Counted from the stretch's first letter, positions 3,815 to 5,770 are shown. The stretch is 64,000 bases of DNA from Thermoanaerobaculia bacterium (GCA_963666565.1 OY762911.1:2592001-2656000); one strand, 5' to 3'. Program-made: numbers and translations. The notes: generated by a model not told the origin, from the sequence alone.

Positions 3815-4162
3815 ATGACTGAAGAACGGTCGAGTAGCGACAGTCTCGGGATCAGGCTCCGGGACGCGCGCAAGTACTGTGGCTTCTCCCAGGAAGAGGT
3901 GGCGCGGCACTTGAACGTATCCCGATCGGCCGTGTCTCTGATGGAGAGCGGCTCTCGGAGCGTCAACGCCATGGAGCTAGGGCGACTGGCGCGGCTCTAT
4001 CAGCGGAGCATGGAGAGCCTTACCGGCACCGTGTCAAGCGAGTCGGAAGCGGAGTCGGTCGGTTTCTTGGCCCGGGCAACGGCAGATCTCTCCAAACGGG
4101 ACCGGCAGGAAGTGCTTCGATTCGCAGAGTTCCTCCGATCGAGGAGGAGTGCCAGTGACTAG
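3815..4162 (+). CDS. XRE-family HTH transcriptional regulator
   Basis: LGIRLRDARKYCGFSQEEVARHLNVSRSAVSLMESG; strong AGGAG RBS. Confidence 0.9.
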   Translation: MTEERSSSDSLGIRLRDARKYCGFSQEEVARHLNVSRSAVSLMESGSRSVNAMELGRLARLYQRSMESLTGTVSSESEAESVGFLARATADLSKRDRQEVLRFAEFLRSRRSASD

Positions 4163-5144
4163 GCGAGAAGGGATTCTACAGGCGGTGGCGGAAGCCTCAA
4201 AGCTGCTCGGCGAGGTCCCAGTCGGTGCCCGAACGAGCTTCGACATCGTGCGCGCTGTCGTGTCACGCCGCATCCCTCTCTTCTTTCGGCCGCTCGATGG
4301 GTTGCTCGGTGCCAACATTCGCTCAGACGATGGCGCCGCCGGCATCCTCGTGACAACTCGGCGCAACCTCGCCATACAGCGGTTCACGCTCGCTCACGAA
4401 CTCGGTCACATCCTCCTCGACCATCAGCCCCATCTCGACACGATGACGACGGTGGATGTTCAGGGTCCCTATTCCACCCCCGATGCCGACCTGCACGAGG
4501 TCGCGGCGAACACGTTCGCCTCCGAACTTCTGGGGGCTAGAGACCTCGTCCTTCGGTCGGCCCGTCGCCACGGTTGGACGAGGAAGGCGCTTCGACAAAG
4601 ACGCAACGTGTATCAACTCGCGCTTCGTCTTGGGCTCAGCTACAAGGCCACATGCTGGGCTCTGCGCACGGCTTCTGTACTCACGCACGAAGAGGCGCGT
4701 TGTCTCCAGAAGTTGCCGGTCAAGCAGATCAAGCAGTCGTTCGATCCTCTCCGCCTGCAGACCAACGCGCGAACGGATGTGTGGCTACTCACCTCGGCGG
4801 ATCGAGACACGTGTCTAGAAGCTGGACCGGAAGACCTGTTCGCGGTTGAACTGTCCGACCACGTGGCGGCCGGCTATCTGTGGAGGCTCAAGGGAACGGG
4901 CGGCGCGGCGAAGGTGGTTGGGGAGGCCCCTCCGAGTCTGAGCCTCGACTATGGCGGCAGGAGCACGAGAACGGTGTATCTCCGATTCGACGCCCCGGGC
5001 ATGCACGAACTGTCGTTTGAACTCGCACGGCCTTGGACCGGCGCTACCTTGGATCAGCTAACCGTCAACATACATGCTCTCGGCTCGGAGCAGGAAGGCC
5101 TGCCACGGCGCCAGAAGCGAGAGGCGCTGGCAAGTGCGGCATGA
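4149..5144 (+). CDS. ImmA/IrrE-family Zn metallopeptidase with C-terminal chagasin/I42-like inhibitor domain
   Basis: RFTLAHELGH zinc motif and EVAANTFASELL; C-terminal VELSDHVAAGYLW ... LSFELARPW resembles chagasin GYxW and RPW loops; start may be GTG 4155. Confidence 0.85.
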   Translation: MPVTRREGILQAVAEASKLLGEVPVGARTSFDIVRAVVSRRIPLFFRPLDGLLGANIRSDDGAAGILVTTRRNLAIQRFTLAHELGHILLDHQPHLDTMTTVDVQGPYSTPDADLHEVAANTFASELLGARDLVLRSARRHGWTRKALRQRRNVYQLALRLGLSYKATCWALRTASVLTHEEARCLQKLPVKQIKQSFDPLRLQTNARTDVWLLTSADRDTCLEAGPEDLFAVELSDHVAAGYLWRLKGTGGAAKVVGEAPPSLSLDYGGRSTRTVYLRFDAPGMHELSFELARPWTGATLDQLTVNIHALGSEQEGLPRRQKREALASAA

Positions 5145-5770
5145 ACGTGGCTATCGAGCTGGACCTGCGGCCCGCGTTAGGTCCTGTGCGGGACCAACGC
5201 GAACTCCCGACGTGCTTGGCTTTTGCAGTGACGGCTGCACACGAACACGCCCTGAGATCAGGTGTGGAGCTCTCGCCCCGGCAGCTCCATCTTCAAGCCG
5301 CTGGAACGCAGATAGGGAAGGGTGTGTCGATTGAGTCCATTCGCGACGCTCTACTGGAACCGGGGCAGGCGCTCGAGGCCGACTGTCCCTACGATCTGGT
5401 GGAATCGGAGCCAGACTGGCTGCCTGTTCCTGGCTTGCCACTCTTTCGACGAGACAGCGAGATGTTGAGCCCGACACCGCCCGACGTGATGTCGGCGCTT
5501 GAATCAGAACATGTCCCGGTCCTGGGCATCAGCCTGCCTGCTGCGTTCCTGAGCCCTTCTGCACCGTGGCTAGTAGAGCCGGGAGACGTAGTGGGTGGGC
5601 TACATGCGGTTGCGGGTGTAGGGCTCGGCCTTCACAGCAGCGGGCGTTGCGTCCTGATCAGGAACAGTTGGGGCGCAGGCTGGGGTGACGCCGGCCATGT
5701 TTGGCTGTCCGAGCGCTTCGTCGCTCGGCATCTTCATGAGCTGATGGTGCTGTCGGACGCGCCAGGATGA
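5141..5770 (+). CDS. Papain-like C1 cysteine peptidase
   Basis: DLRP..PVRDQRELPTCLAFA (oxyanion Q, catalytic C), GLHAVAGVG (H), IRNSWGAGWGDAG (N); ATGA overlap with the upstream stop; no signal peptide. Confidence 0.9.
   Translation: MNVAIELDLRPALGPVRDQRELPTCLAFAVTAAHEHALRSGVELSPRQLHLQAAGTQIGKGVSIESIRDALLEPGQALEADCPYDLVESEPDWLPVPGLPLFRRDSEMLSPTPPDVMSALESEHVPVLGISLPAAFLSPSAPWLVEPGDVVGGLHAVAGVGLGLHSSGRCVLIRNSWGAGWGDAGHVWLSERFVARHLHELMVLSDAPG

Follow-up and report, generated by a model that had tools for sequence, protein, structure and literature searches.

In several described systems, an XRE-family repressor gene is located directly upstream of a gene for an M78 metallopeptidase, whose active site combines HExxH with a further Glu: CapH-CapP in CBASS, DdrO-IrrE/PprI in Deinococcus, and ImmR-ImmA in mobile elements. 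Solved CapP and IrrE have three domains, peptidase, HTH and a C-terminal GAF domain, and in the parts of a recent preprint that deal with them (bioRxiv 10.64898/2026.05.16.725639), GAF contributes one half of the groove that senses ssDNA and also the platform that holds the HTH of the repressor. The chagasin/ICP inhibitors of papain-family enzymes (MEROPS I42) are known from complexes such as chagasin-cruzipain and those with cathepsin L (2nqd), falcipain (2oul) and papain (2cio). They are free-standing proteins with an Ig-like fold, one end of which bears three loops, and chagasin serves endogenous control of cruzipain, a C1 partner from the same genome, according to the sections of PMC2607524 on this pair. 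Bacteria also have members of the chagasin fold, such as P. aeruginosa ICP (2wgn), Cip1 of P. syringae (PMC5014320, in part) and Cpi1 of Pseudomonas (bioRxiv 10.64898/2026.06.02.729523, in part). As described there, the targets of Cip1 and Cpi1 are proteases of the plant host, and both inhibitors are exported or anchored at the surface; in its relevant passage, the Cpi1 preprint says that P. putida lacks a C1 protease of its own. What, then, does a chagasin-family domain do if it occupies the place of GAF in an M78 protein? No publication on such a fusion was found in the literature.

The M78-I42 fusion described here is encoded in the window, the whole stretch of 64,000 nucleotides from a Thermoanaerobaculia bacterium (GCA_963666565.1 OY762911.1:2592001-2656000) that was analyzed. 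As in the systems above, an XRE gene lies directly upstream of the HExxH+Glu peptidase gene, and this CapH-CapP-type pair likewise stands at the head of a defence-like operon; in comparison with CapH-CapP-type systems, the cassette adds a C1 enzyme and a carrier-like protein. Its order is carrier-like gene, XRE, M78-I42, C1, TS-like and MazG/MazG_C, to which the clade of the window adds a phosphopantetheinyl transferase (PPTase). The features are as follows:

2579..3421, plus strand: 4'-phosphopantetheinyl transferase, start codon uncertain (Pfam)
3418..3445, plus strand: sigma-70-like promoter match (TTGAAA-16-TAGACT, 9/12) immediately before the carrier-like gene
3446..3787, plus strand: small acidic carrier-protein-like gene (start GTG 3446 or ATG 3482)
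3815..4162, plus strand: XRE-family HTH repressor, CapH-like (Pfam, PADLOC)
4149-5144, plus strand: M78::I42 fusion frame, 331 aa
4149..4748, plus strand: M78 (ImmA/IrrE/CapP-type) zinc-peptidase domain and helical HTH-like domain of the fusion (Pfam, PADLOC, VIA)
4764..5081, plus strand: chagasin-family (I42) beta-sandwich domain, residues 206-311 (Pfam, Foldseek, VIA)
5082..5144, plus strand: conserved C-terminal tail and helix after I42, then the TGA stop (alignment, model)
5141..5770, plus strand: prodomain-less, apparently cytoplasmic papain-family (C1) enzyme, 209 aa (Pfam, PDB matches)
5195-5197, 5213-5215, 5603-5605 and 5663-5665, plus strand: C1 active-site codons for Gln19, Cys25, His155 and Asn175
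5767..6546, plus strand: thymidylate-synthase-fold enzyme, divergent (Pfam, NCBIfam, PDB)
6543..7643, plus strand: MazG-type NTP pyrophosphohydrolase fused to MazG_C (Pfam)

Judged by its sequence, the fusion frame encodes a metallopeptidase of the ImmA/IrrE/CapP (M78) type. Residues 44-169 match Pfam Peptidase_M78 (PF06114) with 44.5 bits against a cut-off of 22, and the capP profile of PADLOC matches the gene at 1.1e-15. HELGH occupies residues 83-87 (nt 4395-4409) and the third zinc ligand is Glu117 (nt 4497-4499); H83, E84, H87 and E117 are invariant among aligned homologues and are conserved to at least 90% in 42 sequences. The AlphaFold2 model (pLDDT 87.8, pTM 0.87) consists of helices as far as residue 197 or so and of beta strands alone between 211 and 310, with a low-confidence loop at 98-111, between HExxH and Glu117. 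When this model was compared with known structures by VIA, CapP (7t5t) reached Z 14.0, covering only 10-190 of the model, and IrrE and PprI reached Z 12.0 and 11.7 with the M78/HTH part. CapP has a cysteine switch, whereas the corresponding loop of the fusion has no Cys. Since the database copy of the fusion has 329 aa, its start is perhaps GTG at 4155 and not 4149. The first-pass annotation had read a HELGH peptidase followed by a helical HTH-like region, and this description holds. It had also named the protein an IrrE-type sensor, a name that has to be revised: the match to CapP covers the M78 and HTH parts only, and I42 takes the place of the GAF domain. The peptidase/HTH/GAF layout of CapP/IrrE is thus not found, residues 206-311 having a chagasin fold instead, and therefore the protein belongs to the M78 family without being a canonical CapP/IrrE. 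Because I42 stands in the place of GAF, ssDNA sensing cannot be assumed, and the label of an IrrE-type ssDNA sensor is doubtful. Behind the I42 domain, G312, E314, G317 and R320 of the tail are invariant or nearly so in alignment A1; G317 is conserved to at least 90% in the 42 sequences, and a helix is modelled at 320-330.

The C-terminal 105 residues of the fusion are chagasin-like both by sequence and by predicted structure. Pfam Inhibitor_I42 (PF09394) aligns with residues 229-306 over profile positions 6-87 of 91, scoring 34.2 bits (cut-off 27.2; E 3.2e-8), so the domain search that had been suggested earlier came out in favour of the family. Precomputed annotation gives PF09394 together with PF06114 in 114 of the best 120 database relatives. 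In a divergent clade, the Pfam I42 match is sub-threshold in L018 (17.7 bits) and absent in L019 and L020, and direct sequence comparison of the fusion with solved chagasins gives a weak E of 0.07. With residues 206-311 of the model, structures of the chagasin family lead the structural matches: Foldseek finds EhICP2 (E 1.5e-7, TM 0.76-0.83), chagasin with TM 0.75-0.78, and also amebosin, PbICP-C and P. aeruginosa ICP. VIA aligns 3m88_B with Z 14.2 (rmsd 2.3, 100/103 residues) and 2nnr_A with Z 12.4 (rmsd 2.1, 101/110 residues), and the bacterial 2wgn shares the fold at Z 8.7; unrelated Ig-like folds stay at Z 8.0 or below, those of PAD N-terminal domains being 7-8. A chagasin-like structure, as first proposed, is therefore what the model predicts.

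How well are the inhibitory loops kept? The beta-rich C-terminus with GYLW and RPW was correctly noticed at the first reading, and in the HMMER alignment these motifs line up with the L2 and L6 loops of chagasin, which has the same Gly-aromatic-x-Trp after L2 and the same RPW in L6. L2 reads A-G-Y-L-W at nt 4869-4883, GYLW being residues 242-245, and L6 is intact as R294-P295-W296 (nt 5028-5036), with P295 in 40/42 and W296 in 41/42 fusions. The first loop is divergent, as was also remarked: where chagasin has NPTTG (PMC2607524, in the part on its loops), HVAAG is found in the window and HASAG in the family consensus, so that L2 keeps only the Gly and the following aromatic-x-Trp (HVAAGYLW, consensus HASAGYLW). 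L4 is L-D-Y-G-G-R in the window, and only G269 (nt 4953-4955) reaches at least 90% (39/42). Thus, the domain differs from chagasin/ICP in its fusion to a metallopeptidase and in the absence of the NPTT of L2 and the full GXGG of L4. Among 42 fusions, 11 columns of residues 205-331 are conserved to at least 90%, and five of them are G242, W245, G269, P295 and W296 of L2, L4 and L6; by this sequence measure, conservation centres on the three inhibitory loops, which indicates that they are under selection. Chagasin T31A and T31S keep pM Ki (PMC2607524, Table 2), and therefore the divergent L2 need not argue against inhibition.

The next gene, which begins within the ATGA shared with the TGA stop of the fusion, encodes a C1 enzyme as had been read (Pfam Peptidase_C1, PF00112, 32.7 bits with a cut-off at 20.7), and a comparison of the protein with the PDB gives 155 sequences at E up to 1. 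Residues 10-195 align with 10-197 of mature ervatamin B (E 4.2e-9). Since this alignment sets in no more than about 10 residues from the N-terminus of the mature form, the enzyme has no prodomain, and the N-terminal prodomain and signal peptide typical of most C1A enzymes are both absent, in agreement with the earlier reading; such an absence is variation inside the C1 family and does not exclude the enzyme from it. The N-terminus, judged by eye, is not signal-like; no hydrophobic segment is found in the protein, all 19-residue Kyte-Doolittle means being 1.46 or less, and the whole protein has 3 Cys. Q19, C25, H155, N175 and W177 align with the positions of ervatamin B and are invariant in 17/17 cassette homologues; in papain numbering the catalytic set is the Cys25/His159 dyad with Gln19 and Asn175. 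The protein also has Asp18 in an RDQ context, Arg17 being nearly invariant. In cruzain, the position of this Asp18 is the partner of chagasin Arg91, according to the contacts described in PMC2607524.

It is to be noted that the I42 domain and the C1 gene do not come together by chance: I42 is specifically linked to the neighbouring C1 gene. In the whole 4.79-Mb genome, I42 and C1 are each matched once, and the two lie side by side. Among 159 loci anchored on other genes (80 MazG-anchored loci from metagenomes and 79 M78-anchored loci from genomes), I42 is present in 46 and C1 stands beside it in 45 of these. Both occur in 26 of the MazG-anchored loci, where I42 alone is never found and C1 alone is found twice, each time at a contig end; the M78-anchored loci have both in 19 and I42 alone in one, the decayed L009. 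M78 is found without I42 and without C1 in 40 loci, and the related TS-like/MazG cassettes L037, L146 and L158, whose M78 has no I42, also lack C1 and the carrier-like gene. The junction between fusion and C1 is a 4-nt NTGA overlap in 30/45 loci, another short overlap in 7/45 and a gap of 0-4 nt in 6/45, so that the two genes overlap or lie at most 4 nt apart in 43/45. Pairwise distances of C1 correlate with those of I42 (r 0.73) and of M78 (r 0.65), with partial correlations of 0.52 and 0.34; as the pairs depend on one another, this counts as weak evidence. An MI-APC covariation scan of 42 pairs, which was underpowered, finds loop columns no more frequent among the top inter-protein pairs (0.10) than in the background (0.10). 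In the ICP-papain complex 2cio, chain A (papain) matches the C1 protein and chain B (ICP) matches the fusion, with an E of only 0.14, and the chagasin entry 3e1z is among the PDB matches of both proteins. Since the two proteins are thus homologous to the two partners in solved chagasin/ICP-papain complexes, we infer that I42 would bind and inhibit C1. The idea of a protease-antiprotease pair is therefore supported in part, namely in that a chagasin-like domain is linked to a C1 gene. The C1 partner comes from the same genome, as for chagasin and cruzipain. As known from sequence and model, however, the I42 of the window would work in the cytoplasm of a bacterium and shares its operon with nucleotide enzymes, and in contrast to Cip1 and Cpi1 it has no export signal and has a C1 neighbour of its own.

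What surrounds this pair in the cassette? The XRE protein matches Pfam HTH_31 (1.5e-13) and HTH_3 (9.7e-11) and capH of PADLOC (6.4e-9); the 3' end of its gene overlaps the start of the M78 gene, and every complete locus has an XRE gene ahead of the fusion. Behind C1, the TS-like enzyme, conserved at this place in the cassette, has 22.7 bits for Pfam PF00303, just below the cut-off of 24.3, and matches NCBIfam thy_syn_methano at 1.4e-10 over a partial region. Thymidylate synthases of the PDB align with it over 168-236, the catalytic PC included, and it keeps the Pro-Cys and R-S-x-D ... N motifs. The last protein matches Pfam MazG_C (4.2e-76) and MazG (8e-6), and the profile of its MazG family matches dCTP pyrophosphatase 1 with E 1e-5. 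MazG_C relatives adjoin genes of the thymidine-hypermodification type, namely HMUDK_hel, Nmad2, Nmad3, UDG and dCTP-deaminase-like genes. Related domains appear in the defence systems of DeWeirdt et al. (Science 2026; PMC13092281), in the portions of that paper cited here: the new domains of validated systems include thymidylate synthase and 5-hmdU kinase, predicted, unvalidated systems carry MazG, MazG-C, UDG, HTH and NMAD domains, and MazG-C is called 'a predicted nucleotide kinase'. The TS fold, MazG and MazG_C are thus common to those systems and the cassette of the window, and UDG-like, HMUDK and Nmad proteins to its relatives. In the main text of that paper 'papain' and 'ImmA' occur 0 times, and chagasin does not occur in the passages searched.

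The carrier-like protein and, in this clade, the PPTase are conserved parts that the first-pass annotation does not contain. The PPTase matches Pfam ACPS with 28.7 bits (cut-off 25) and 4PPT_N with 27.5 bits (cut-off 27). Its homologues at the matching position are confined to the clade of the window (L001-L008, L010-L013, L017, L084 and L094), and none was detected upstream of the cassette in convergent-type loci. The promoter match that precedes the carrier-like gene is a consensus match only; two such sites were found in 2000-8000, compared with 0.6 in shuffles. The carrier-like gene lies upstream of XRE in all I42+C1 loci with that flank sequenced, except L021, which has a diverged candidate at another position. 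The Ser encoded at 3638-3640, within I-D-S-K, is invariant in 25 aligned homologues, as is GGY. Against the PDB, the family profile gives weak matches (E 0.06-0.3), the best being 2lki and most of the others carrier proteins too; in two of these weak alignments, with holo-ACP 2lki and the ACP chain of 7b0n, the invariant Ser falls on the DS motif. The top VIA rows for the model are mostly carrier proteins at Z 4.9-5.9, a range that possibly reflects a common arrangement, and in the ESM Atlas the cluster 'Carrier domain-containing protein' ranks first with a score of 0.94. Foldseek finds nothing for the model at E up to 0.001, and among Pfam families DUF5805 is sub-threshold (28.4 against 28.5 bits) and PP-binding (PF00550) has no match at E up to 1, for which reason the gene is called carrier-like here and not a member of the family.

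The cassette is conserved and sporadically distributed, and defence genes are often its neighbours. PADLOC finds HEC-01A/B upstream and DrmMI and DrmD downstream of it in the window, and no match for the C1, TS-like and MazG proteins themselves. Known or candidate defence genes (E up to 1e-15) are present in the flanks of 10 of 21 other loci; the remaining 11 have none there, two of them carrying only TniQ. Of 401 genomes of the phylum, 2 contain a strong C1 match. The 9 other genomes of the same genus contain no such match, eight of them having no match at all and one a weak match in a different, 641-aa frame, and a relative that is 86-92% identical in DNA lacks 4731-10689 of the window. None of the best 80 viral-contig relatives extends into the I42 domain. 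A stand-alone I42-like gene next to a distant C1 gene was also observed, in L252. A defence role of the cassette is thus suggested by association only.

Taken together, it seems on balance probable that the fusion and C1 are cognate partners within the cell, inhibitor and enzyme, and belong to the control module of an inducible, horizontally mobile, defence-like cassette. The XRE protein would repress the operon, and the M78 peptidase, when triggered, would cleave it by analogy with ImmA, IrrE and CapP. Translational coupling would yield fusion and C1 at about 1:1, and the I42 domain, in the place of the GAF sensor, would plug the active-site cleft of C1 with its three loops and keep the enzyme silent. 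The trigger would then change or destroy the fusion, so that C1 is set free for its presumed targets while the pyrimidine-nucleotide enzymes are expressed, possibly as a cascade of two proteases directed against phage. Such a release has to be postulated because equal, coupled synthesis and a chagasin-like pM affinity would keep C1 locked even after induction; the sequence gives no sign of this step. As to the trigger, the replacement of GAF by I42 argues against the ssDNA known for CapP and IrrE.

Can the same parts be arranged in another way? C1 may be the input to the switch and not its output: I42-bound C1, with its cleft free or occupied, would control M78, C1 and the carrier-like protein would serve as the sensor, and XRE cleavage would be the output. 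I42 is indeed found where GAF provides half of the groove and the repressor platform, and the carrier-like gene, I42 and C1 are gained and lost together. The pTM of the model suggests an orientation of M78 and I42 fixed enough to transmit occupancy, and loop 98-111 would lie, by positional inference, at the site of the autoinhibitory switch loop of CapP. However, no relative of ImmA, IrrE or CapP is known to be controlled by a bound protease, nothing identifies what occupies or liberates the C1 cleft, and the same evidence suits a simple inhibitor latch equally, and we regard this arrangement as possible but unlikely. In an arrangement like toxin-antitoxin pairs, C1 would be a toxic protease and the fusion a labile antitoxin, which decays upon host shutoff and lets the cell die, while M78 senses no specific signal. 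The locus shares with type II pairs the inhibitor placed before the enzyme, stop and start overlapping in most loci, an XRE autorepressor upstream, and a mobile, sporadic spread with loss of the genes in a close relative. Several fusions also end in -AA or -VA, which we take to recall C-terminal degradation tags, although the divergent clade does not conserve these terminal residues. Still, the inhibitor is here a domain of an active-looking peptidase within a cassette of 6-8 genes, and neither the intact, invariant HExxH in the same chain nor the conservation of the TS-like, MazG and carrier-like genes with the pair is explained, which makes such a working improbable.

It is hardly to be expected, either, that C1 acts mainly as something other than a protease, for example in I42-gated thioester hydrolysis or in acyl or aminoacyl transfer on a phosphopantetheinylated carrier, within the nucleotide chemistry of TS-like and MazG enzymes. 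This would account for the co-variation of C1 and I42 with the carrier-like gene, whose Ser is invariant and beside which this clade has a PPTase, and for the thymidine-hypermodification-type genes beside MazG_C relatives. Yet nothing of the C1 peptidase signature is missing from the enzyme, the oxyanion Gln19 and also Asn175 being present, no acyltransferase of the C1 family was found in the literature examined, and the identity of the carrier is unproven, given the missing PP-binding and Foldseek matches and the VIA Z of 5-6. That the I42-like domain is a mere Ig-like module, for oligomerization for instance, and C1 an unrelated neighbour is extremely unlikely. The L2 and L4 motifs are degenerate and Ig-like folds are common, as the PAD domains remind us; against this stand the joint presence and joint loss of I42 and C1, the single, adjacent copies in the genome, an I42 match above the curated Pfam cut-off, Z values of 12-14 with chagasins, far over those of other Ig-like folds, and RPW and G-aromatic-x-W conserved at the loop positions.

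Returning to the cognate inhibitor-enzyme pair, the C1 enzyme has no prodomain, and the I42 domain fused to the neighbouring metallopeptidase may take over its role in latency. The cassette that carries this pair is widespread, uncharacterized and defence-like.

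The genes are tightly packed on the plus strand between 2.5 and 7.7 kb of the window, and from the XRE gene onward neighbouring genes overlap by 4-14 nt. They are arranged as follows.

Gene run in the window
2579-3421, plus strand: PPTase (phosphopantetheinyl transferase); Pfam ACPS 28.7 bits (cut-off 25), 4PPT_N 27.5 bits (cut-off 27)
3446-3787, plus strand: small acidic carrier-like protein; comparative and fold evidence
3815-4162, plus strand: XRE repressor; HTH_31 1.5e-13, PADLOC CapH 6.4e-9
4149-5144, plus strand: M78::I42 fusion, 331 aa; Pfam Peptidase_M78 and Inhibitor_I42
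5141-5770, plus strand: papain-family C1 gene, 209 aa; Pfam Peptidase_C1
5767-6546, plus strand: thymidylate-synthase-fold (TS-like) gene; PF00303 22.7 bits, just below the cut-off of 24.3
6543-7643, plus strand: MazG and MazG_C gene; MazG_C 4.2e-76

GC content is 62-63% in the cassette vs 66-71% in its flanks. A 167-aa ORF with weak HTH matches (2088-2591, minus strand) is divergent to the PPTase gene.

The M78::I42 gene joins a metallopeptidase (Peptidase_M78, residues 44-169, 44.5 bits) to a C-terminal inhibitor domain of the chagasin type (Inhibitor_I42, residues 229-306, 34.2 bits vs the curated cut-off of 27.2), and its best PADLOC match is CapP (1.1e-15). Compared directly with the PDB, the fusion sequence reaches chagasins only at E 0.07, and therefore fold comparison was needed. 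An AlphaFold2 model built with 18 homologues (pLDDT 87.8, pTM 0.87) has helices to about residue 197, beta-strands from 211 to 310, and a short tail and helix at the end. In Foldseek, the C-terminal domain of this predicted model has EhICP2 as its top match (E 1.5e-7, TM 0.76-0.83), followed by other members of the chagasin family, namely chagasin itself, amebosin, PbICP-C and P. aeruginosa ICP, and the N-terminal part matches IrrE, PprI and CapP. In VIA structure comparison, residues 206-311 gave Z 14.2 with EhICP2 (rmsd 2.3 Å, 100/103 residues) and 12.4 with chagasin (2.1 Å, 101/110), against 8.0 at most with unrelated Ig-like folds, and residues 10-190 gave Z 14.0 with CapP. The first-pass annotation had proposed a chagasin-like C-terminal domain carrying GYLW and RPW, with a divergent first loop, and an HMM search for it; the profile score above the curated cut-off, the fold (Z 12.4-14.2) and the loops described below bear this out. 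It had also called the N-terminal part an IrrE-type sensor, a label in need of revision: the peptidase is CapP-like, and the place of the GAF domain is taken by I42.

Chagasins are defined by three inhibitory loops, L2 (NPTTG), L4 (hydrophobic-hydrophobic-GXGG) and L6 (RPW/F), as described in PMC2607524. In the fusion, L6 is complete (R294-P295-W296), L4 has a single invariant Gly left, and L2 reads HVAAGYLW, with HVAAG in place of NPTTG, so that only the Gly and the subsequent aromatic-x-Trp are kept. It is to be noted that chagasin T31A and T31S retain picomolar Ki (PMC2607524, Table 2); thus, the divergent L2 is no argument against inhibition. Among 42 fusions, five of the 11 columns with at least 90% conservation in residues 205-331 fall in the three loops. 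The sets used for loop conservation, distances and covariation leave out truncated or frameshifted genes (L001, L005, L009, L010, L013, L017) and copies of the window's own genome (L080, L081). Behind the I42 domain, residues 312-331 (window 5082-5141) form a tail with conserved G312, E314, G317 and R320 and then a helix; it may serve in docking or in cleavage. Another feature is the sole stretch with pLDDT below 50, residues 98-111 (window 4440-4481), between HExxH and the Glu ligand; by its position, it would correspond to the autoinhibitory cysteine-switch loop of CapP. This loop has no Cys, and H92 and D97 are invariant.

The next gene product matches Pfam Peptidase_C1 (32.7 bits vs 20.7) and aligns with ervatamin B (E 4e-9) along the entire mature length, and therefore has no prodomain. 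Three cysteines in all and the lack of any hydrophobic segment, at the N-terminus or elsewhere, fit a cytoplasmic protein. A C1 protease without prodomain or signal peptide, overlapping the fusion by ATGA (4 nt), was what the first reading of the sequence had described, and the description stands. Gln19, Cys25, His155, Asn175 and Trp177 are invariant in all 17 cassette C1 homologues compared. Residue 18 of the enzyme is Asp; as reported in PMC2607524, its counterpart in cruzain is ion-paired with Arg91 in the RPW motif of chagasin.

Are the inhibitor domain and the papain-family enzyme linked in evolution? In the window's own genome (4.79 Mb), I42 and C1 are each matched exactly once, in neighbouring genes. 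Family profiles were then scanned over two sets of loci that had been anchored on other genes, with L080 and L081 kept outside the tallies.

Co-occurrence of I42 and C1 in two locus sets
80 MazG-anchored metagenome loci: I42 with C1, 26; I42 alone, 0; C1 alone, 2 (both cut by the contig end); M78 without either, 1; none, 51
79 M78-domain-anchored genome loci: I42 with C1, 19; I42 alone, 1; C1 alone, 0; M78 without either, 40; none, 19 (M78 match too weak)

The sole locus with I42 alone (L009) is an N-terminally truncated remnant, and the 19 genome loci with both include one with just a 37-residue C1 remnant and three with frameshifted genes. In three related cassettes (L037, L146, L158) the regulator is of the M78 or HTH-M78 type and lacks I42; TS-like and MazG_C are present there, and the C1 and carrier-like genes are absent. 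The fusion stop and the C1 start share a 4-nt NTGA overlap at 30 of 45 loci, overlap otherwise at eight (one being the frameshifted L010) and are separated by 0-4 nt at six, and at one no C1 start was found; as a script took the candidate start nearest to the fusion stop, these counts show that a start exists, not that it is used. Pairwise distances correlate between I42 and C1 (r 0.73) and between M78 and C1 (r 0.65), with partial correlations of 0.52 vs 0.34 over non-independent pairs, and this co-variation may lend weak support to the linkage. Inter-protein covariation (MI with APC), underpowered at 42 pairs, gave no enrichment, loop columns having the same share (0.10) among the variable columns as in the top 60 pairs. 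Solved complexes such as 2cio and 3e1z pair a homologue of the fusion with a homologue of the C1 protein, the match of the fusion to the inhibitor chain being weak by sequence (E 0.14). From homology and comparative genomics, we infer that the I42 domain binds and inhibits the C1 enzyme. In another genome of the phylum, a stand-alone I42-like ORF is divergent to a distant C1 peptidase gene (L252, 1078-2133), a putative unfused bacterial inhibitor-protease pair.

Clustered at 90% identity, proteins with the fusion fall into more than 100 groups, and its loci span Acidobacteriota, Binatia, Thermodesulfobacteriota, Gamma- and Betaproteobacteria, Planctomycetota, Gemmatimonadota and Actinomycetota. 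The order carrier-like, XRE, M78::I42, C1, TS-like and MazG/MazG_C repeats in MAGs and isolates labelled Binatia, Thermodesulfobacteriota, Gammaproteobacteria, Vicinamibacterales, Longimicrobiales, Planctomycetota, Betaproteobacteria, Lysobacterales and Actinomycetota. Of the MazG-anchored loci with C1, 28 in number, six are colinear as in the window and 22 have a convergent MazG. In this convergent variant (L014, L016, L018-L020 and most of L091-L157), MazG/MazG_C is a separate operon. Most convergent loci have a 220-aa UDG-like gene beside MazG (with a weak Pfam UDG match in L037), and L018 has a DUF4031 gene too. At other loci (L092, L101, L127, L154, L161; L086, L114, L130, L146; L158, L159), MazG_C genes lack the protease pair, and their partners are Nmad2 with ThsB-type TIR, SLOG and TIR genes, or 5-hmdU DNA kinase, Nmad3 and dCTP-deaminase-like genes, or UDG-SocA_Panacea fusions. 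These Nmad2, 5-hmdU kinase and UDG-type partners of MazG_C genes place the effector part of the cassette in a broader group of candidate conflict systems of the nucleotide-modification type. At two loci (L002, L011), carrier-like, XRE, M78::I42 and C1 genes have no TS-like or MazG gene within 6 kb, and downstream of C1 lies a PmbA/TldD-like gene or a type I restriction HsdR-like gene; either these loci are decayed or the control module is portable.

Within the phylum the cassette is sporadic: strong matches to the C1 gene were found in two of 401 sampled genomes and in none of nine other genomes of the genus (the tally of weak matches includes an unpublished genome, G024). The closest public relative, an Acidobacteriota MAG 86-92% identical in DNA (L001), has at its junction 4820/4821 a clean deletion of about 5.96 kb, corresponding to window 4731-10689, which takes out I42, C1, TS-like, MazG and the C-terminal part of DrmMI. 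That the fusion came from phage is unsupported, as the best 80 viral-contig relatives end by residue 193 and none reaches into the I42 domain.

The carrier-like gene precedes XRE in all I42 and C1 loci with enough flank except L021, which has a diverged candidate at another site. Across loci, its presence varies together with that of I42 and C1. All 25 aligned sequences share a Ser in D/E-S context and a GGY motif. Against the PDB, its profile gave weak matches (E 0.06-0.3), most of them acyl or D-alanyl carrier proteins; the best is 2lki, by title a holo acyl carrier protein, and the invariant Ser falls on a DS motif in both alignments viewed. With the model (pLDDT 88), Foldseek found no match at E 0.001 or below, and the best VIA rows, at Z 4.9-5.9, are mostly carrier proteins. 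The closest ESM Atlas clusters are named 'Carrier domain-containing protein' (0.94) and ACP family (0.91). A PPTase gene adjoins the cassette only in the window's clade. From these carrier-type matches and the PPTase next door, it is likely that the protein, which has no Pfam confirmation, is a phosphopantetheinylated carrier. Cleavage of it by the C1 enzyme past the GGY motif was considered, and no support was found.

The surroundings are defence-like. Upstream lies a candidate defence pair, HEC-01A (AAA_21 ATPase, 2.3e-159) and HEC-01B (DUF4276, 4.7e-68), at 220-2017 on the minus strand, and downstream, adjoining the cassette, are DrmMI (1321.8 bits) and DrmD (1017.1 bits) at 7683-15088 on the minus strand. 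As PADLOC gave no match for seven large ORFs at 15.2-29 kb, a complete DISARM system is not established. L094, too, has DrmMI and DrmD beside its cassette. None of the C1, TS-like, MazG, carrier-like and PPTase proteins is matched by PADLOC. In a scan of 122 of 138 flank ORFs, covering 21 of 24 loci (L134, L135 and L157 left out), flanks of 10 of the 21 loci have known or candidate defence genes at E 1e-15 or below (Lamassu, Mokosh, type I and IIG restriction-modification, DrmMI, DrmD, MzaA, PycC and PDC candidates), and two further loci have TniQ only. In DeWeirdt et al. (PMC13092281), the predicted, unvalidated defence domains include MazG, MazG-C ('a predicted nucleotide kinase'), UDG, HTH and NMAD, and those newly implicated in the validated systems include a thymidylate synthase and a 5-hmdU kinase; the words 'papain' and 'ImmA' have zero occurrences in the main text of that article.

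How might such a cassette work? Pairs of XRE and M78 peptidase are by now known as a common type of transcriptional switch in the immune operons of bacteria. As described for IrrE and CapP (bioRxiv 10.64898/2026.05.16.725639), the peptidase cleaves its XRE partner, the known trigger is ssDNA, which is sensed via GAF and binds in a groove that this domain forms with the peptidase, and the HTH of the repressor is held by GAF as well. In the fusion, unlike these two, I42 stands in the place of GAF. It is probable, if only slightly, that the fusion works as a latch: transcription would still be gated by the XRE-M78 pair, the co-translated C1 enzyme would be locked by the I42 domain in a 1:1 complex, and a trigger acting on the fusion would release it alongside the nucleotide enzymes. 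Release is the weak point, because coupled synthesis and a chagasin-like affinity would keep the lock shut unless the fusion is cleaved, degraded or rearranged. A decay model like that of toxin-antitoxin systems is improbable; the C-terminal -AA of the fusion, considered as a degradation tag, is not conserved in the divergent clade.

The main rival reverses the flow of information, making the C1 enzyme and the carrier-like protein the sensor in GAF's stead. Both co-vary with I42; we hold this reading to be rather unlikely. A further reading, which we regard as doubtful, might run as follows: the carrier-like protein, C1 and the chagasin domain would form a new input module replacing the ssDNA-sensing GAF, in which the chagasin domain tells the metallopeptidase whether the C1 active site is free, C1 acts on the phosphopantetheinylated carrier or its cargo, and the state of the carrier gates the pyrimidine-modifying effectors. 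To our knowledge, the state of a dedicated carrier protein is the infection cue of no defence regulator. It is also improbable that the papain-fold enzyme has a non-proteolytic, carrier-directed role, and very unlikely that I42 and C1 have no link.

All parts of the cassette belong to known families, and no description of the M78::I42 fusion or of its cassette combination was found in the literature searched; database copies of the fusion bear only generic names such as 'ImmA/IrrE family metallo-endopeptidase' and 'predicted secreted protein'. The bacterial chagasins Cip1 (PMC5014320) and Cpi1 (bioRxiv 10.64898/2026.06.02.729523) are described as exported and aimed at host proteases. The cassette occurs beyond this window's genome, and what emerges is a large, phylum-spanning family in which a protease-inhibitor domain has taken over from the GAF sensor, and which has gained a papain-type enzyme to match it as well as a carrier-like protein. 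If the lock works in the way proposed, this would be the first case of a chagasin-type inhibitor whose target is intracellular and bacterial, and the first protease-antiprotease latch within a regulator of the ImmA/CapP type. The compact, genetically encoded, inhibitor-gated papain-fold enzyme would then be a possible tool, and mutants in the inhibitor domain and in Cys25 would give a handle on an uncharacterised nucleotide-modifying defence candidate.
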